Positions 12,285-57,432 of a stretch of 64,000 nt of DNA are shown one piece after another. Below the pieces are notes generated by a model, which saw nothing but the letters and a program-made list of their open reading frames with translations, was not told the DNA's origin and made no database searches. The DNA lies in the NCBI GenBank assembly GCA_002722245.1, contig PBLA01000001.1, positions 22,292-86,291 on the forward strand, read 5' to 3'. Each line of letters starts with the position of its first letter. The stretch's first letter is position 1. The translations under genes were made by a program, and so were the position numbers. The DNA is from Flavobacteriales bacterium. Its GTDB lineage: Bacteria > Bacteroidota > Bacteroidia > Flavobacteriales_C > GCA-002722245.

Positions 12285-13703
12285 TTAGTTGATTTTCTTC
12301 ACTAAAGTGAGTCCAATTTCTTGTCCTTTTTTTTCCATGAACGCAATAGCTGCTTTTCGTTCATTGGGTATGTGCCCCTCTAAGATGGCTTCTTTTATGG
12401 CTTCTTTAATTTCACCAATTTTAGGAGAGGGGTTTAAATCAAAGGCCTCAATAATTTCTTTTCCGTCAACAGGAGGTTGAAAATTTCTAATTTGATCTCG
12501 TTCTTCAACGTCTTTGAGTTTTTGTCGAACCAATTGGAAGTTGTTCAGGTATTTTGCAACCTTTTGTTTGTTTTTTGAAGTGATATCAGCTTCACAGAGG
12601 GTCATTAAGTCGTCTACGTCATTTCCTGCGTCAAAAAGGAGTCTTCTCACGGCTGAGTCCGTAACTACTTCTTGAGCAAGTACAATTGGCCGCAAATGAA
12701 GGTTTACCAGTTTTTGAACAAATTTCATTTTCTGGTCCAATGGTAGCTTTAATCGTTTAAATATTTTCGGCACCCACTTGGCTCCCAAAGGTTCATGGCC
12801 ATGGAAGGTCCACCCTGCTTTTTTATCAAATCTTTGGGTGGCCGGTTTAGCGATGTCGTGCAATAATGCAGCCCATCTTAACCATAAATTATTGGTGTTT
12901 ACACTGATATTATCGACTACCTGTAGGGTGTGGTAAAAATTATCTTTATGTTTTTGACCGTTCATTTCTTTTACTCCCTGAAGTTTTACCATTTCAGGAA
13001 AGAATTGATGAAGTAATTTCGTGTTGAACAGGAGCTTTAAGCCAACCGAGGGGACAGGGGCAAGCATAATTTTATTAAACTCATCCATAATCCGCTCTAC
13101 TGATACAATTTTAAGTCGCTCTGCATTTTGCTGAATGGCTTCAAACGACTTTTCTTCAATTGTAAAACCTAATTGTGTGGCAAATCGAATGGCTCGCATC
13201 ATTCTTAAAGGATCGTCGCTGTATGTGATAGAAGGATCTAATGGTGTGATTAGTCGTTTATCCTTCATATCTTTTAAGCCACCAAAAGGATCAATAAGTT
13301 TCCCGTAATTTGCCTTTTCTAAACTTAATGCCAAGGCATTAATAGTGAAGTCTCTTCGTTCTTGATCTTCTTCAAGAGAGCCGTCTTCAACAATAGGTTT
13401 TCGAGAATCGCGCGTGTATGATTCTTTACGGGCTCCTACAAATTCAATTTCCAATCCTTTGTAATTAAAGGCTGCTGTTCCAAAGGATTTGAAAACAGCA
13501 ACTTTTGGATTTCCTACTTTTTTAGCTGCAGCTAACGCTAATTCGATGCCTTTTCCTTCTACGACAATATCAATGTCCTTTGATGGTCTTTTCAGGTAAA
13601 GATCTCTCACGTATCCACCAATTACAAATGCTCTCACATTAAGTTCGGCGGCTGTTTCAGAAATAATTTCAAAAATTTTATGTTTCAGCAAATCTTTACT
13701 CAA
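12285..13703 (-). CDS. cca: CCA tRNA nucleotidyltransferase / poly(A) polymerase family with HD domain
   Basis: Pol-beta nucleotidyltransferase motif [12 protein letters not shown]...DIDIVVEG, followed by HD-domain region (HD motif ALLHDIAKP). Confidence 0.8.
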
Positions 13704-40264: not shown

Positions 40265-40840
40265 TTACCTGGAGCTTGATAGGTTGTTTTGTAAAGCGAT
40301 TAACTTATCAAAAACGTTAAGATCAGGTATAATAATTTTAATTGTTTTTATGTTATTGTTGTATTGAATTCGAGCAACTGTGTGTTCTCTCTCTACTGAT
40401 TGAATATGATCCCATGGAATAATTTCTGAATAAGAACCTGGAAGTTTAATTCCATTTTTATAAATTCTTATTGAATTCATAGTGCTTTGATATTTCATTC
40501 CAAAATACATTGCCAGAATCAAGGGTGCCACATAAATAAAAGGACTTTCTCGTTTAAATAAGTCCAGAAAATAGTCAATCGCATATTCCAATATAAAATA
40601 CAGTCCCAATGAAATGAATAGCGGTAGTGTATTTTTTAAAGAAACTCCCACTCTTATGGAGAAAATAATTGAATGAACGTCTTTTTTATGTAGTGTACCT
40701 ATATAGTAGCCAAAACCAATACAACATGTATTTATAAAAACTACAATGGGAAGTAGAAGCGGGAAGTCATAATGACCCAGAACATAAATGATTAAAAAAG
40801 AGAGGGTAATAGTTGCTTCAAAAATTCTATTTATCATCAA
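40265..40840 (-). CDS. hypothetical membrane protein
   Basis: Three to four TM helices, then a soluble C-terminal region. Confidence 0.35.
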   Translation of the reverse strand: MMINRIFEATITLSFLIIYVLGHYDFPLLLPIVVFINTCCIGFGYYIGTLHKKDVHSIIFSIRVGVSLKNTLPLFISLGLYFILEYAIDYFLDLFKRESPFIYVAPLILAMYFGMKYQSTMNSIRIYKNGIKLPGSYSEIIPWDHIQSVEREHTVARIQYNNNIKTIKIIIPDLNVFDKLIALQNNLSSSR

Positions 40841-41148
40841 TCCAGCATAAATATATCTTCACCATCTTTTTTCATCAAATAGTGCTCCCGCGCATATTTC
40901 TCCATGAACTCACTATTGTTCATGTTTCGAAGAAAAATAGTATTCTTTGCAGTTTCTATTTTTAATCGTCGTAGCTCTTTTTTTAATTCATTTTTTTGTT
41001 GGATTAATTCTGCATGAAAAAAGAAATTATAGTGATCAAAGAAAGAAATCCAAACAAGAAAAACAAAACTGGTTAAGAAGAATCGATTTTTAAAAAAGGC
41101 AGGGATGTTTTCTATTAAGTTCACCTTTTGAAGATAGTGGAATATCAC
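40837..41148 (-). CDS. septum formation initiator (FtsB/DivIC-like)
   Basis: Single TM, then a coiled coil (LIQQKNELKKELRRLKIE) and an ...EKYAREHYLMKKDGEDIF tail typical of FtsB-family proteins. Confidence 0.5.
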   Translation of the reverse strand: MIFHYLQKVNLIENIPAFFKNRFFLTSFVFLVWISFFDHYNFFFHAELIQQKNELKKELRRLKIETAKNTIFLRNMNNSEFMEKYAREHYLMKKDGEDIFMLD

Positions 41149-41250: not shown

Positions 41251-42087
41251 TTAAGTCAATGATTTTTTTCTCACCTTTTGCCAACCTAAAACGCTGAAAA
41301 GTCCTAATCCCATTAATACACCAATAGCAGGAACTGTAGGTATATCGAGAAATAGCGCAATAAAGTGACCACAGATACAACTCATAATACCAAAGCAAAC
41401 AGCAATGATCAAAAATGGTTTAAGTTTTTGAGTTATGACATGCGCAAATGATGCAGGTACAACTAATAATCCAATGACCATTATTGCTCCAACACTATCG
41501 AAACTATATACTGTGGAAACGCTTGACAGACCCAAAAGAAGATAGTTCCAAAAAGGAATAGAAATCCCTATAGATTTCGCGTATGCTTGATCAAAGCTGG
41601 TTAATTTAAAGCCTTTCAATCCCAGTAAAACAATAGGAGCTGTGATTAAAGAAATAATAATCAAATTAAAAGTAGGAGTGGGTATTCCCCATGTTTTAGG
41701 AACGATAGGGATCGTGTTAATGTCGCCAAATAAGACGCAGTCCACATCAATATCAGCATTTTTTGCTTGTGAAGTAATGAGTATAATTCCAATTGCAAAA
41801 AGGAGTGTGTAAATAATTCCAATTGAACTATCTTTTCCAAAACCTCCTATTCGATTCAACCACTCAATTAACAAAATAGCGATAATCCCAAATCCACTTG
41901 CACCAAGAAGCATCCAGAAAGAGTTGATTTCACCTGAAATCATAAAAGCAATAACAATACCAGGTAAAACAGCATGAGATAAGGCATCACCAATAAGACT
42001 CATTTTTCGAAGTACAAGAAAACTTCCCAGTAAACTGGAGTTTATGCCGATAATGCATGCAGTGAGTATAATCCAAAAATCAAACAT
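41251..42087 (-). CDS. metal (Mn/Zn/Fe) ABC transporter permease
   Basis: ABC-3 family topology with LLGSFLVLRKMSLIGDALSHAVLPGIV. About 278 aa. Confidence 0.85.
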   Translation of the reverse strand: MFDFWIILTACIIGINSSLLGSFLVLRKMSLIGDALSHAVLPGIVIAFMISGEINSFWMLLGASGFGIIAILLIEWLNRIGGFGKDSSIGIIYTLLFAIGIILITSQAKNADIDVDCVLFGDINTIPIVPKTWGIPTPTFNLIIISLITAPIVLLGLKGFKLTSFDQAYAKSIGISIPFWNYLLLGLSSVSTVYSFDSVGAIMVIGLLVVPASFAHVITQKLKPFLIIAVCFGIMSCICGHFIALFLDIPTVPAIGVLMGLGLFSVLGWQKVRKKSLT

Positions 42088-43439
42088 TAGTCTTCGTAAG
42101 GGATATTTTGTTGATGCGGATCGCTCGTTGGCCTCCCCAGTGTTTTTAATAATTCTGTTTCAAGGGATTTAGTCATGATGTGCTCAATGGATTCAGCACT
42201 TTCATGAACATGATCGGATTGTATTTGCATAAACTTTTCCATGTAAAGCTCCCACAATCTATGTATCCTAATAATTCTCTTTGCCTCTGCAATTCCTTTT
42301 TCAGTAAGCGTCCAAGCCCCATTCGCTTCAATTACAAACTTTTTTCTTTTTAAGATACTCAACCCTTTACTGAGATCAAAAGAAGCAAAAGGATGAAAAT
42401 TTTGAATCATTTGAACAGAATAACTTTGATCAAATTGGTTTTTGTGTTCACCTAATTTATACAGCGTTTTTAGGACATTATCCGAGATTATTTTATTTCG
42501 GTTTTGAATCCCCATTATTTTTTTTGTGATTAATCCCTTTCGAGATAGTAATGCGGACAAAATAGCGATGGTGGATAGTACTACAATAATCCAGGGGCCT
42601 GTAGGCATGTCTGGAAACAGATAGGAAACAAAAACACCCAAAATACTGCTTAAAGCTGCAAACGCACCAGACAATAAAATAGATTTTTTAAAGTGGTTGG
42701 TCCAGAAAAATGCAGAAGAGGCAGGAGTAATAATTAATGCACTCATCAGAATTATTCCAACTGTTTGAATTCCAATAGCAGTGCTCACGATAATTAATCC
42801 TGAAATTAGACTTTGAACAAGTTTGTTATTTAAACCAATTGTGTTTGCAAATCCCTGATCAAACAATGCAATTTTGAAGTGTCTATAAAATAAAATAACA
42901 ACCCCTAAAACAAGTCCACATAATCCACAAAAGAGATAGAGGTCTTTTCGAACAATCGTAGCTGCTTTTCCAAACAGAAAATCAGAAAGACCACTCTGCT
43001 GACTATTTCCTGAGTGTTGTATAATACTTAACAAAATAACACCTAAACTAAAGAGCACTGATAAGGCAATTGCAATGGCTGCATCTTTTTTAATTCGTGA
43101 GATTTTTGTTAACCAGTCTACAAGGAATACGGCAATTGCTCCAGCAAACATTCCTCCAGCTATTAAATAAATTGGATTTTTAACCCCAGAGAGCATAAAT
43201 CCTAAACATACACCTGGTAAAACAGAGTGGGAAACGGCATCAACAATTAATGCTTTTTTATTTAAAACAACTAAAACCCCTACAATACCGCACGTAAAAC
43301 CTAAAATTAACGTTCCAAAAAAAACGTTCGAAATATTGGCGTCTTGAAAAGAAAAAAAATAAATAAAATCGTCCCAAAATTTCATGTTACTCTCGAATTG
43401 GAAATTGTCGTTGTTTGTATACTTCACCCAATTGCTCAA
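42087..43439 (-). CDS. metal ABC transporter permease fused to a C-terminal DtxR/MntR-like regulator domain
   Basis: The N-terminal ~300 aa are an ABC-3 permease (IVDAVSHSVLPGV). The C-terminal ~150 aa are hydrophilic, with an HTH-like stretch and RIHRLWELYMEKF...HESAESIEHI. This parallels RKHRLWEVFLVEKLKFGWDEIHEIAEQLEHI of the adjacent stand-alone DtxR regulator. Confidence 0.7.
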   Translation of the reverse strand: MSNWVKYTNNDNFQFESNMKFWDDFIYFFSFQDANISNVFFGTLILGFTCGIVGVLVVLNKKALIVDAVSHSVLPGVCLGFMLSGVKNPIYLIAGGMFAGAIAVFLVDWLTKISRIKKDAAIAIALSVLFSLGVILLSIIQHSGNSQQSGLSDFLFGKAATIVRKDLYLFCGLCGLVLGVVILFYRHFKIALFDQGFANTIGLNNKLVQSLISGLIIVSTAIGIQTVGIILMSALIITPASSAFFWTNHFKKSILLSGAFAALSSILGVFVSYLFPDMPTGPWIIVVLSTIAILSALLSRKGLITKKIMGIQNRNKIISDNVLKTLYKLGEHKNQFDQSYSVQMIQNFHPFASFDLSKGLSILKRKKFVIEANGAWTLTEKGIAEAKRIIRIHRLWELYMEKFMQIQSDHVHESAESIEHIMTKSLETELLKTLGRPTSDPHQQNIPYED

Positions 43440-44172
43440 GAATACTCAGATTACCTCCGTAAGTTTTTTGCAGAAGTTCAGTAGTATATACGTCGTTAGT
43501 GGGACCACTCGCAACGATTCGTTTGTTAATAAGAACCATCCAATCAAAATATTCCATTGCAGATTGAAGGTCGTGATGAACAACAAAAATTGTTTTTCCT
43601 TCCTGTTGAAGCGTTAAAAGAAGATCAACAATTGCTTTTTCACTGGCCATATCAACACCAGCAAAAGGCTCATCCATGAAGTACAAATCTGCCTCTTGAG
43701 CCAAAGCTCGGGCAATGAATACACGTTGTTGTTGTCCACCAGAAAGAGCCGAAATATGATGCTTTGCGAAATCCATCATTTTTACTTTTTTAAGCGCATC
43801 AATAGCAATTTGTTTATCCTGTTTTGTTAGGCGTTTGAAAAGACTTTTTTTACCATATCTTCCCATTTCTACAACATCAAGGACAGTTGCAGGAAAATCC
43901 CAGTCAACCGATTCTTTCTGGGGTACATAAGCTATTTTTTGTCGAACCTTTTTTAAAGGTTGATTAAAGATTTTTACATAACCACTTGCTGATGGAACAA
44001 GTTCCATCATGGCTTTTAATAGGGTGGATTTACCCGCACCATTTGGCCCTATAATACCGACCATTTTCCCCTTAGGAATGTTAAAATCCACATTCCATAA
44101 TACGGGTTTATTATTATAGGCAACCGTTAAATCGTGAATTTCAACAATAGCCTCTTCTACATGCTTAATCAT
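43387..44172 (-). CDS. metal ABC transporter ATP-binding protein
   Basis: Walker A GPNGAGKST, ABC signature LSGGQQQR and Walker B LYFMDEP. Confidence 0.88.
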   Translation of the reverse strand: MIKHVEEAIVEIHDLTVAYNNKPVLWNVDFNIPKGKMVGIIGPNGAGKSTLLKAMMELVPSASGYVKIFNQPLKKVRQKIAYVPQKESVDWDFPATVLDVVEMGRYGKKSLFKRLTKQDKQIAIDALKKVKMMDFAKHHISALSGGQQQRVFIARALAQEADLYFMDEPFAGVDMASEKAIVDLLLTLQQEGKTIFVVHHDLQSAMEYFDWMVLINKRIVASGPTNDVYTTELLQKTYGGNLSILEQLGEVYKQRQFPIRE

Positions 44173-45113
44173 TTGCTTAATGCGCTAACAATTGTTTGGG
44201 TATTTTTTTTAATCATTTTAATGTAGGTTTCTGCACCACTTTGAGCATCACCTAAACCATCGCTGTAGAGCGTTCCACCAATTTTTAGGTCTAGTCCTTT
44301 TGATCGGCACCCTTCAATGATTGCATTGATATTTTTTCTAGAAACAGAATTTTCTATGAAAATGGCAGGGATTTTTCTACTTACTATAAGATCAGTTAAT
44401 TCTGTTATTCCGCGAACAGAAATATCGGATGCGGTTGATATACCTTGTACACCTTTTACTTCAATACCAAATGCTCGTCCATAATATCCGAATGCATCGT
44501 GCGCTGTAATCAACACCCTAATTGAATCAGGTATTTTATTCATTTCACGTTTAACATAAAGTTCAGTGGCTAATAATTTTTTTGTGTAGGATTTTGTTGC
44601 AGAATCAATATAGTTTTGATGAATAGGGAATTTTTTGGAAAATTCTTTTCCTACAAGTTCTACGGATGTTGCAAATAAATTAACATCATGCCAAAAATGT
44701 GGGTCATGAGCTGTTCCAAACTCTGTAGTTGCTCTTAATCTTTCCTCAGGTACAATTTCTCCGAGTTTAACCACATGACGAGATTTTCCTATTTCATCAA
44801 TAGCATCCAGCAAGTTAGATTCAAAGTGAATACCATTACAGGCAACAGATTCTGCGTTTAACATCGCTTTCATTTCAGATGCTTTACTCTTGTAGGTATG
44901 GGGGTCAACTCCAGGACCCATTAATGCTTCGATTTCAAAGGGTGTAGGAGGAAGGATGTTCTTCATAGCATCAGCAATTACACCTGTTGTACAAATTACA
45001 TGAACGCTCGAAGATGACATCTTATTTTCATGCGATGAACATCCAATTATAATAAGAATGGAAAGAAGGGGAAGATAAAGCAGGTTTTTCATATTATTTT
45101 TCTTTGGAAACAT
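44169..45113 (-). CDS. metal ABC transporter substrate-binding lipoprotein (TroA/ZnuA/MntC family)
   Basis: Signal peptide with lipobox (IIGCSS). Cluster-9 SBP length, with conserved HDPHFWHD and AHDAFGY metal-site regions. Confidence 0.8.
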   Translation of the reverse strand: MFPKKNNMKNLLYLPLLSILIIIGCSSHENKMSSSSVHVICTTGVIADAMKNILPPTPFEIEALMGPGVDPHTYKSKASEMKAMLNAESVACNGIHFESNLLDAIDEIGKSRHVVKLGEIVPEERLRATTEFGTAHDPHFWHDVNLFATSVELVGKEFSKKFPIHQNYIDSATKSYTKKLLATELYVKREMNKIPDSIRVLITAHDAFGYYGRAFGIEVKGVQGISTASDISVRGITELTDLIVSRKIPAIFIENSVSRKNINAIIEGCRSKGLDLKIGGTLYSDGLGDAQSGAETYIKMIKKNTQTIVSALSK

Positions 45114-45756
45114 TAAGGTTTTTAGCCACTAATTCTGAAAATGTCCGTTCAGTTTTTTGATTGACCAAAACTTTTAAGGACTTGTCAAATTGAAAGAAAT
45201 CTAAAATTTCAATGGATGAACCCAGTTTGAGGTCGATACTATCTAAATATCTTAAGAAATCTTTGGAGTCTTCAGAGACACCAATTAAAATTGATTTTTC
45301 ACCAATTGATAAATCATTTAATTTGTATTTTTTTAGAGTATGAAACTCGCCTTTTTTGTTTGGAATGGGATCACCATGAGGATCGTTTTTTGGATATCCC
45401 AAGTGCTCGTCCAATTTATCAATAAGTTTTGCGGATTTAATGTGCTCCAATTGCTCAGCAATTTCATGAATTTCATCCCATCCGAATTTAAGTTTCTCTA
45501 CCAAAAAAACTTCCCACAAACGATGTTTTCTTATTACATGTAATGCAATTTGTTCACCTTCTTTTGAAAGTGTTGTTCCTTGATATTTTATATAGTTTAC
45601 TAAACCTTTGTCGGCCAATTTTTTTACCATATCGGATACCGAGGAAGCTTTTGTAGAGAGCTCTTCAGCAATTGCATTGGTGGAAACTCCTTCTTTTGAT
45701 GGTCCGCTTAACTTAAAAATTGCTTTTAGATAATCTTCGGTGGTACTGGTTTGCAT
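45094..45756 (-). CDS. DtxR/MntR-family metal-dependent transcriptional regulator with C-terminal FeoA/SH3-like domain
   Basis: N-terminal wHTH (EDYLKAIFKL), a metal-binding/dimerisation region (RKHRLWEVF...HEIAEQLEH...DPHGDPIP) and a C-terminal SH3-like extension. It is first in the transporter operon. Confidence 0.8.
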   Translation of the reverse strand: MQTSTTEDYLKAIFKLSGPSKEGVSTNAIAEELSTKASSVSDMVKKLADKGLVNYIKYQGTTLSKEGEQIALHVIRKHRLWEVFLVEKLKFGWDEIHEIAEQLEHIKSAKLIDKLDEHLGYPKNDPHGDPIPNKKGEFHTLKKYKLNDLSIGEKSILIGVSEDSKDFLRYLDSIDLKLGSSIEILDFFQFDKSLKVLVNQKTERTFSELVAKNLNVSKEK

Positions 45757-45766
45757 TTACTCTAAG

Positions 45767-45804
45767 ATTTAGACAAAGATAAACAAATTTAGACTTGTCT
45801 AAAT
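45767..45804. promoter_or_regulatory. candidate DtxR/MntR operator: ATTTAGAC half-sites incl. perfect 8-2-8 inverted repeat
   Basis: ATTTAGAC-TT-GTCTAAAT at 45787-45804, plus an extra direct copy of ATTTAGAC at 45767-45774 (20 bp away). These sit 11-48 bp upstream of the regulator start codon (45756, minus strand). Confidence 0.4.
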
Positions 45805-56619: not shown

Positions 56620-57432
56620 ATGTCAAACGGAATACTAAAAGGTAAAAAAGGGATTATTTTTGGAGCTTTAGATGAGAATTCGATAGCTTGGAAAGTAGCC
56701 GTGCAAGCTGCTGCCGAAGGAGCAGAGTTTGTTTTAACAAATGCTCCAATCGCATTGAGAATGGGAGCGATCAATACATTAGCTGAGCAAACGAATTCAA
56801 AGGTTATTCCTGCTGATGCAACATCGGATGAAGATTTAGAAAAATTATTTACGGAGGCTCAAGAGTTTTTAGGAGGTAAAGTTGATTTTGTACTTCATTC
56901 AATCGGAATGTCGCCGAATGTTCGTAAAAAGAAACATTATACAGAACTTAATTATGATTTTTATCATAAAACCTTGGATATATCAGCAATGTCCTTTCAC
57001 AGAGTGTTAGCAGCTGCTAAAAAACTTGACGCAATTAATGAATGGGGGTCTGTAGTTGGTTTATCCTATATCGCAGCACAAAGAACGTTCCCTGATTATT
57101 CGGATATGGCTGAGGCTAAATCGTTATTAGAATCAATAGCCAGAAGTTTTGGATACCACTATGGTACAGAAAAAAATATACGAGTAAATACAATTTCCCA
57201 ATCTCCAACAATGACAACGGCAGGGAAAGGAATTAAAGGATTTAATGGTTTTTATAATTACGCAGATCAAATGTCTCCATTAGGGAACGCTCCAGCTGAG
57301 GACTGTGCAAATTATATTATCTCTTTATTTTCGGATTACACAAAATATGTGACGATGCAGAACTTATTTCATGACGGTGGTTTCTCTAATACTGGAGTTT
57401 CACAAGTAGTAATGGATAAGTTTGAAGAATAA
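56620..57432 (+). CDS. fabI: enoyl-[acyl-carrier-protein] reductase (NADH)
   Basis: LKGKKGIIFGALDENSIAWKVA dinucleotide-binding region and FabI-type length. Follows acpH directly. Confidence 0.85.
   Translation: MSNGILKGKKGIIFGALDENSIAWKVAVQAAAEGAEFVLTNAPIALRMGAINTLAEQTNSKVIPADATSDEDLEKLFTEAQEFLGGKVDFVLHSIGMSPNVRKKKHYTELNYDFYHKTLDISAMSFHRVLAAAKKLDAINEWGSVVGLSYIAAQRTFPDYSDMAEAKSLLESIARSFGYHYGTEKNIRVNTISQSPTMTTAGKGIKGFNGFYNYADQMSPLGNAPAEDCANYIISLFSDYTKYVTMQNLFHDGGFSNTGVSQVVMDKFEE

Follow-up and report, generated by a model that had tools for sequence, protein, structure and literature searches.

The question raised by this locus is why a membrane permease should carry the domains of a transcriptional repressor. 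In a 64,000-nucleotide (nt) stretch of a Flavobacteriales bacterium genome (assembly GCA_002722245.1, contig PBLA01000001.1, positions 22,292 to 86,291; hereafter the window), a metal-import operon contains a gene, at 42087..43388 on the minus strand, in which an ATP-binding cassette (ABC) permease continues in frame into a tail resembling regulators of the DtxR family; the operon is also led by a stand-alone DtxR-type regulator. The original prediction, made from the DNA letters, read the fusion as a novel membrane-anchored sensor. We instead consider it probable (roughly 80%) that this is a Tro/Ytg-type import operon with a permease-repressor fusion of the YtgC-YtgR type, whose tail would be released and act as a repressor.

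The fused gene and its two parts

Called mechanically, the open reading frame (ORF) spans 42087..43439 on the minus strand and counts 450 residues from a TTG codon. That start gives a 53-nt overlap with the ATPase gene (43387..44172) and places the first 17 codons within its 3′ end. Because the TTG lies inside the ATPase gene, and because orthologues of 430-439 residues begin with MKFWDD or MNFWDD, the Met of which is encoded at 43388, the true start is most likely the ATG at 43388, giving 433 residues; residue numbers below are counted from it, except for Pfam ranges, which refer to the 450-residue ORF. This ATG shares 2 nt with the ATPase stop codon, whose last base is 43387, and the stop codon of the fused gene overlaps the start of the second permease gene (TAATG at 42085-42089); these junctions suggest translational coupling along the operon. 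The gene and its parts are:

42087..43388, minus strand: whole fused gene of YtgC-YtgR type, 433 residues and a stop codon, delimited by the ORF, the orthologue starts and a chlamydial alignment
42534..43388, minus strand: ABC-3 type II importer permease domain, residues 1-285 (PF00950, E 5.4e-60; PsaC fold; DxxSH motif)
42306..42491, minus strand: first part of the tail, helix 1 and a divergent winged helix-turn-helix, residues 300-361 (AlphaFold2 elements and fold match)
42099..42305, minus strand: second part of the tail, DtxR metal-binding/dimerisation domain, residues 362-430 (PF02742, E 3.5e-21; invariant ligand positions)

Pfam places ABC-3 (PF00950) at residues 33-297 and Fe_dep_repr_C (PF02742) at residues 379-447, the latter with 75.4 bits against a cut-off of 27. 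The original prediction had expected the tail to match the DtxR helix-turn-helix (HTH) family Fe_dep_repress as well, but PF01325 gave no match to it even at E<=1. A phmmer search of PDB sequences aligns the last 150 residues with ScaR 5-130 and SloR 6-131, that is, with a winged helix and a dimerisation domain. With 39 orthologues as input, AlphaFold2 gave a model with a mean pLDDT (predicted local distance difference test) of 85.6, with block values of 81-92 over residues 301-390. In it the last transmembrane helix and helix 1 of the DtxR module form one unbroken helix (H286-315), and the tail further comprises helix 2 (325-331), a putative recognition helix (336-348), wing strands (352-355 and 358-361) and three dimerisation-domain helices. 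The tail model superposes best on the Mn-dependent repressor DR2539 (8pvt; template-modelling (TM) score 0.80-0.81, root-mean-square deviation (rmsd) 2.0 over ~130 residues), with IdeR, DtxR and SloR as the next structural matches, and the match covers the winged helix. In this model, the HTH of the tail is recognisable by its predicted fold and not by its sequence. Taken together, Pfam, the PDB sequence search and the model bear out a permease with an in-frame C-terminal DtxR-type extension, the tail being ~145 residues long.

Could such a fusion be an artefact, in which a frameshift error joined two genes, or could the tail be a functionless remnant? Stand-alone tail-like proteins of ~135 residues do exist (P0137, P0139 and P0140), and the metal-ligand residues are lost in some Crocinitomicaceae-like proteins (P0052, P0048, P0058 and P0060). 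However, the same architecture recurs widely. In a search of 5.8 billion proteins we obtained 1809 relatives; among the best 120 listed, most have 427-439 residues with both PF00950 and PF02742, the rest being either shorter fragments or of full length but lacking a PF02742 match, and the sources are mainly metagenome-assembled genomes (MAGs) of marine Flavobacteriales, Saprospiraceae and other Bacteroidota. A genome scan with one genome per species gave 579 relatives, and the best 80 of these all have a single continuous ORF of ~420-480 residues; cultured carriers among these 80 loci include Ekhidna, Pontibacter, Algoriphagus, Chryseobacterium and Mangrovivirga, and a few loci come from Hydrogenedentota, Armatimonadota and Ignavibacteriales. 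The frameshift or mis-assembly that the original prediction had allowed for is therefore ruled out: hundreds of independent assemblies, complete genomes of cultured species among them, have one continuous ORF of 420-440 residues. In addition, the ligand positions are invariant in the 39 orthologues, which are only 45-80% identical to the window protein, and the model is confident throughout the tail. We regard an artefact or a relic as extremely improbable.

The permease part of the model superposes on PsaC of S. pneumoniae (7kyp; TM-score normalised to the target 0.87-0.92, rmsd 2.1-2.6, Foldseek), and D50 and H54 of the DxxSH metal-coordination motif in transmembrane helix 2 are invariant in the 39 aligned orthologues. 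By this fold (TM-score about 0.9) and this motif, the protein resembles PsaBC and the ABC-3 type II importers; it differs in that PsaC is a homodimer without a cytoplasmic extension, whereas the window operon encodes two different permeases, one of which bears a DtxR module. PsaC has nine transmembrane helices and was expressed with a C-terminal green fluorescent protein fusion (PMC8346216). From the match to this nine-helix protein and the strongly basic stretch SRKGLITKK directly after the last transmembrane helix, we infer that the tail is cytoplasmic, in agreement with what had been predicted.

Six tail residues, H376, E380, H395, E399, E402 and H403, are invariant in the 39 orthologues; from the ScaR and SloR alignments we take them to be the equivalents of DtxR H79, E83, H98, C102, E105 and H106. 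The third, SH3/FeoA domain is not present, the protein ending three residues after the PF02742 match (IPYED, then the stop), and thus the tail is of the two-domain, MntR-like type. It shares this fold with the N-terminal construct of DR2539 and with B. subtilis-type MntR, and like the Mn-responsive members it carries Glu at the DtxR C102 position; unlike them, it is attached to a membrane protein. Two positions of helix 1 also set it apart from MntR: the equivalent of DtxR M10 and MntR D8 is Asn or His in the orthologues, and the equivalent of MntR E11 is an invariant Lys (K307). The binuclear MntR-type site is therefore not fully reproduced.

Chlamydial counterparts and the co-encoded regulator

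A fusion of this kind has been studied in Chlamydia, where the ytgABCD operon encodes YtgC, an ABC permease that continues into the DtxR-like YtgR (PMC5599777, PMC6504234, PMC7755916), with a TroC-like N-terminus and a TroR-like C-terminus (PMC5599777). Immunoblots showed YtgR to be cleaved off both during infection and in E. coli (PMC5599777, PMC7755916). YtgR binds DNA in an iron-dependent manner and represses the ytg and trpBA promoters (PMC5599777, PMC6504234, PMC7755916); it is the only iron-dependent regulator of Chlamydia, which has no separate DtxR (PMC6504234). A passage of PMC5599777 that cites Thompson 2012 places orthologous permease-repressor fusions in 11 phyla.

We searched 1.84 billion representatives with the tail only and obtained 455 matches at E<=1e-10. 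Among the best 149 of these, 88 are proteins of at least 390 residues with the match at their C-terminus, and the named clusters among the fused matches are one Chlamydia sp. MAG and one Planctomycetota. The window protein aligns end to end with the protein of the Chlamydia sp. MAG (P0259, 466 residues; query 16-430, subject 13-449, 29% identity, E 6e-59, BLASTP), whose Pfam pattern is the same: ABC-3 and Fe_dep_repr_C, with an HTH too divergent for PF01325. Like C. trachomatis YtgC-YtgR (CT069/CTL0325), the window gene is an ABC-3 permease in frame with a C-terminal DtxR-like module. The gene order of the chlamydial ytgABCD operon (substrate-binding protein (SBP), ATPase, fused permease, second permease) is repeated as well, and the HRLWE and H..AE..EH ligand motifs of chlamydial YtgCR are conserved. 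On the tail search, the named clusters, this alignment and the tail scores given below, the window gene belongs to the known YtgC-YtgR family as an uncharacterised member, and its architecture is not new. The comparison with YtgCR thus removes the supposed novelty of the fusion, and the idea of a new kind of membrane-anchored sensor does not hold up against a family whose chlamydial tail is cleaved off as a soluble, iron-dependent repressor. The phylogenetic distribution, which had been named as a check, proves to be wide in Bacteroidota, with Chlamydia sp. and Planctomycetota representatives besides. There are also differences: the window operon is led by a separate three-domain DtxR/MntR gene, and its host is a free-living marine Bacteroidota-type organism. 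Deinococcus DR2283/DR2284 was considered as a fused precedent and dropped, as no such fusion is described in the literature examined.

Both ligand motifs are almost universal among the 149 best representatives of the tail search, and the ligand residues are lost in few lineages, namely the four Crocinitomicaceae-like proteins above and loci L004-L007. In these loci, which are Crocinitomicaceae-like and related (L004 6001-7284, L005 5880-7163, L006 1166-2437, L007 6001-7290), a tail of ~140 residues is kept without HRLWE or H..AE..EH; the contig of L006 ends too near upstream to judge whether the operon has a dtxR gene, and a FUR-family gene lies close by. The best tail matches also include stand-alone proteins of ~130-140 residues that run from helix 1 to the end (P0137, P0139, P0140, P0176, P0177, P0219, P0233, P0236 and P0237), and these may be unfused (split) YtgR-type regulators.

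The operon reads, on the minus strand, dtxR, SBP (TroA-like), ATPase, permease 1 (fused) and permease 2. The partners of the fused gene are:

45094..45756, minus strand: stand-alone three-domain DtxR/MntR regulator, 220 residues, first gene (PF01325 E 3.3e-18, PF02742 E 2.2e-30, PF04023 (FeoA) E 1.4e-7)
44169..45113, minus strand: TroA-like cluster A-I metal substrate-binding lipoprotein of the ZnuA family (PF01297 E 1.5e-59)
43387..44172, minus strand: ABC ATPase subunit, TroB/YtgB equivalent (PF00005 E 5.4e-33)
41251..42087, minus strand: second, unfused ABC-3 permease, TroD/YtgD equivalent (PF00950 E 4.1e-51), 278 residues and so of normal length, as predicted

Among solved structures the SBP is closest to Treponema pallidum TroA (E 3.1e-64), and the DPH, DPHxW, AHDAFGY and SD ligand motifs align between the two; this closeness to TroA fits a Tro/Ytg operon type. 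The same SBP-ATPase-permease(R)-permease order is found in L001-L003 and in most genome loci. A Tro/Ytg-type import operon for divalent metal (Mn/Fe, possibly Zn) is the best explanation of these genes. In T. pallidum troABCDR, too, a regulator is encoded within the transporter operon, but there it is a separate gene at the operon end, whereas the window has a DtxR-type module fused to the TroC-like permease and a longer regulator at the operon front. That stand-alone regulator has Thermus-type MntR as its best NCBIfam match (158 bits, under the cut-off of that model). The Trp of the HRLWE helix-4 motif occurs in stand-alone regulators as well (window 45094-45756; L001-L087); the equivalent residues of the matched structures are HRLIE in ScaR and SloR and HRLLE in DR2539, and DtxR and IdeR carry HRLAE.

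With a ZnuB/MntB-type permease joined in frame to a DtxR-type domain and a three-domain stand-alone regulator, the operon does encode two DtxR-type modules, one of them tethered to the membrane, as the original prediction stated. The further claim, that the tail mirrors the operon's own regulator, is right for the dimerisation domain, in which the only significant similarity between the two lies (41% over 71 residues), but not for the HTH. The scores of the tail are 73.6-121.9 bits with fused tails, including those of other phyla, 35.5-67.1 bits with stand-alone operon regulators and 47.1 bits with its own partner. The reciprocal search parts fused tails from stand-alone regulators equally cleanly. 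Because the scores to fused tails exceed the score to its own partner, the tail is a YtgR-type paralogue from a separate subfamily rather than a copy of the operon regulator, and a recent duplication of that regulator is ruled out (47 bits to the partner, 74-122 to fused tails of other phyla).

How regularly do the two modules occur together? Of the 80 loci that extend at least 3 kb upstream, 50 (about 63%) have a stand-alone dtxR as the first gene of the operon. Intact tails are found in 44 loci with an operon dtxR and in 26 without; non-canonical tails in 6 with and 4 without, and six of these ten differ only by E399D, a conservative change. The window arrangement, a fused tail together with an operon-leading dtxR, is therefore the majority pattern in Bacteroidota and not an obligatory one. 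A strict co-occurrence of intact tail and operon dtxR, hinted at by L004, L005 and L007, was not upheld, as 26 of the 70 intact-tail loci are without dtxR.

These counts bear on the idea that the tail uses its dimerisation domain to pair with a single stand-alone DtxR monomer, holding it at the membrane or passing metal to it, so that the regulator would report transporter abundance or flux. Such docking would suit two paralogues that are encoded in one operon and share the unusual HRLWE motif in helix 4, and a heterodimeric permease pair would supply only one tail per complex. Moreover, three of the four clearly degenerate-tail loci with enough flank are also without an operon dtxR (the same L004, L005 and L007). 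However, this correlation comes from very few independent lineages, and L068 has a degenerate tail yet retains dtxR. The two DtxR subfamilies are clearly diverged. The model is further weakened by the many intact-tail loci without a second, operon-encoded DtxR and by Chlamydia, which has no separate one (PMC6504234). We consider docking improbable.

A candidate operator and the fate of the tail

Upstream of the operon lie two palindromic elements:

45787..45804, no strand assigned: candidate DtxR-type operator, a perfect 8+8 palindrome ATTTAGAC-aa-GTCTAAAT with core TTAG-N6-CTAA, 31 nt upstream of the dtxR start
45767..45783, no strand assigned: second, imperfect copy of the half-sites, TTTATCTTTGTCTAAAT, adjoining the first (inverted repeat I1, 17-nt arms, 82% complementary)

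They form tandem operator-like palindromes at 45767-45804 (ATTTAGACAAGTCTAAAT and the imperfect copy), just upstream of the dtxR start. We scanned 88 loci (1.04 Mb) for the core TTAG-N6-CTAA, allowing one palindromic mismatch, and found 37 sites. Of these, 19 precede the fused gene by 2250-2500 nt, a distance that corresponds to the promoter of dtxR-led operons; in operons that lack dtxR, four further sites precede the SBP gene. The site at 45787..45804 is the only one of the window in an intergenic promoter position. Perfect TTAG-N6-CTAA palindromes also occur at 13522-13535 and 57007-57020 (TTAGCTGCAGCTAA and TTAGCAGCTGCTAA); because both lie inside long ORFs and have GC-rich centres, they are probably chance matches and not operators. 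Either of the two DtxR paralogues may bind the candidate operator.

Building on this homology and anatomy, we infer how the system may work by analogy with chlamydial YtgCR. The tail would bind imported metal in the cytoplasm, proteolysis would free it from the membrane, and the freed tail would dimerise and repress the operon at the palindromic operator. Repressor dosage would thereby be coupled to transporter synthesis. The tail would do so beside the stand-alone DtxR/MntR, in which the DNA-reading helix is better conserved than in the tail. Two observations favour release and repression: the winged helix of the tail is intact and positively charged (mean net charge +4.0, compared with +3.0 in the stand-alone regulator), and the operator is present in operons without a nearby dtxR.

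To see how the two modules evolve, we compared mean pairwise identities of the tail and the stand-alone regulator across the same 45 genomes:

Helix 2: tail 0.21, stand-alone regulator 0.51
Helix 3: tail 0.27, stand-alone regulator 0.58
Wing: tail 0.26, stand-alone regulator 0.50
Dimerisation helices: tail 0.59-0.69, stand-alone regulator 0.69-0.82

Several points weigh against a tail that represses transcription. No part of the fused protein evolves faster than helix 2, helix 3 and the wing of the tail (0.21-0.27; permease 0.55, dimerisation domain 0.6), and conservation in helix 3 is limited to buried leucines; a drifting winged helix is odd for the reader of a conserved operator. The recognition helix of the stand-alone regulator is well conserved across the 45 genomes, and this regulator, which leads 50 of the 80 operons, may be the protein that binds the palindrome rather than the tail. 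Cleavage and DNA binding of the tail are steps taken entirely from the chlamydial precedent, and in the orthologue alignment no conserved cleavage motif or internal start codon is seen in the linker. An internal translation start that would yield a free tail was considered at Met291 (in KKIMGIQ) and rejected, this Met not being conserved in the orthologue consensus. A relaxation of the HTH confined to loci in which a stand-alone regulator would make the tail redundant was likewise rejected: HTH identity is 0.25 where a dtxR gene lies nearby and 0.24 where none does.

The same data give room to a different role, in which the tail is never released in Bacteroidota. It would stay on transmembrane helix 9 as a permanently tethered Mn/Fe sensor, bind cytoplasmic metal and allosterically close its own importer when the cell is metal-replete, leaving transcription to the stand-alone DtxR, or it would work together with that co-encoded DtxR. 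Trans-inhibition by C-terminal regulatory domains is known from MetN and ModC. A permanent tether would explain the invariant metal core, the drifting winged helix and the second regulator with its conserved recognition helix. For the coupling to flux or gating put forward in the original prediction, the one support is the drift of the winged helix, and it is indirect. In keeping with a tether, strict conservation is seen in the core but not in the DNA-reading helix or wing, this contrast is the same with or without a nearby stand-alone dtxR, the model shows one unbroken helix from transmembrane helix 9 into helix 1 of the DtxR module, and most loci pair a stand-alone regulator with a conserved operator. 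However, the known trans-inhibition domains are located on the ATPase subunit and not on the permease. In the winged helix the fold is complete and predicted with confidence, the net positive charge is conserved, and the operator is retained in operons without a nearby dtxR. Finally, the only experimentally studied member of the family, YtgCR, is cleaved and binds DNA (PMC6504234, PMC7755916). We therefore hold gating by a tethered tail to be unlikely, although clearly less so than docking onto the stand-alone regulator, and continue to prefer a released, YtgR-like repressor.

Significance and surroundings of the operon

The one genus in which permease-DtxR fusions have so far been studied, Chlamydia, is an obligate intracellular pathogen and hard to manipulate. 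Free-living Bacteroidota, among them cultured members (Algoriphagus, Pontibacter, Ekhidna and Chryseobacterium), carry the YtgCR-type family in abundance, and in this phylum the fusion usually has a conventional DtxR regulator as well as a recognisable operator next to it. The cultured species offer hosts in which to ask whether, how and why the repressor domain leaves the permease, and what the second DtxR module adds. The present annotation of the genes, only 'zinc/metal ABC transporter permease', masks the regulatory domain. Three lineage-specific features are worth a note: an operon-leading dtxR in ~63% of loci, the conserved TTAG-N6-CTAA and the fast-evolving winged helix of the tail.

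Right downstream of the operon, at 40265-41148, are two small overlapping minus-strand ORFs of 103 and 191 residues. The first has one hydrophobic segment and a coiled-coil-like tail; the second has multiple transmembrane segments.

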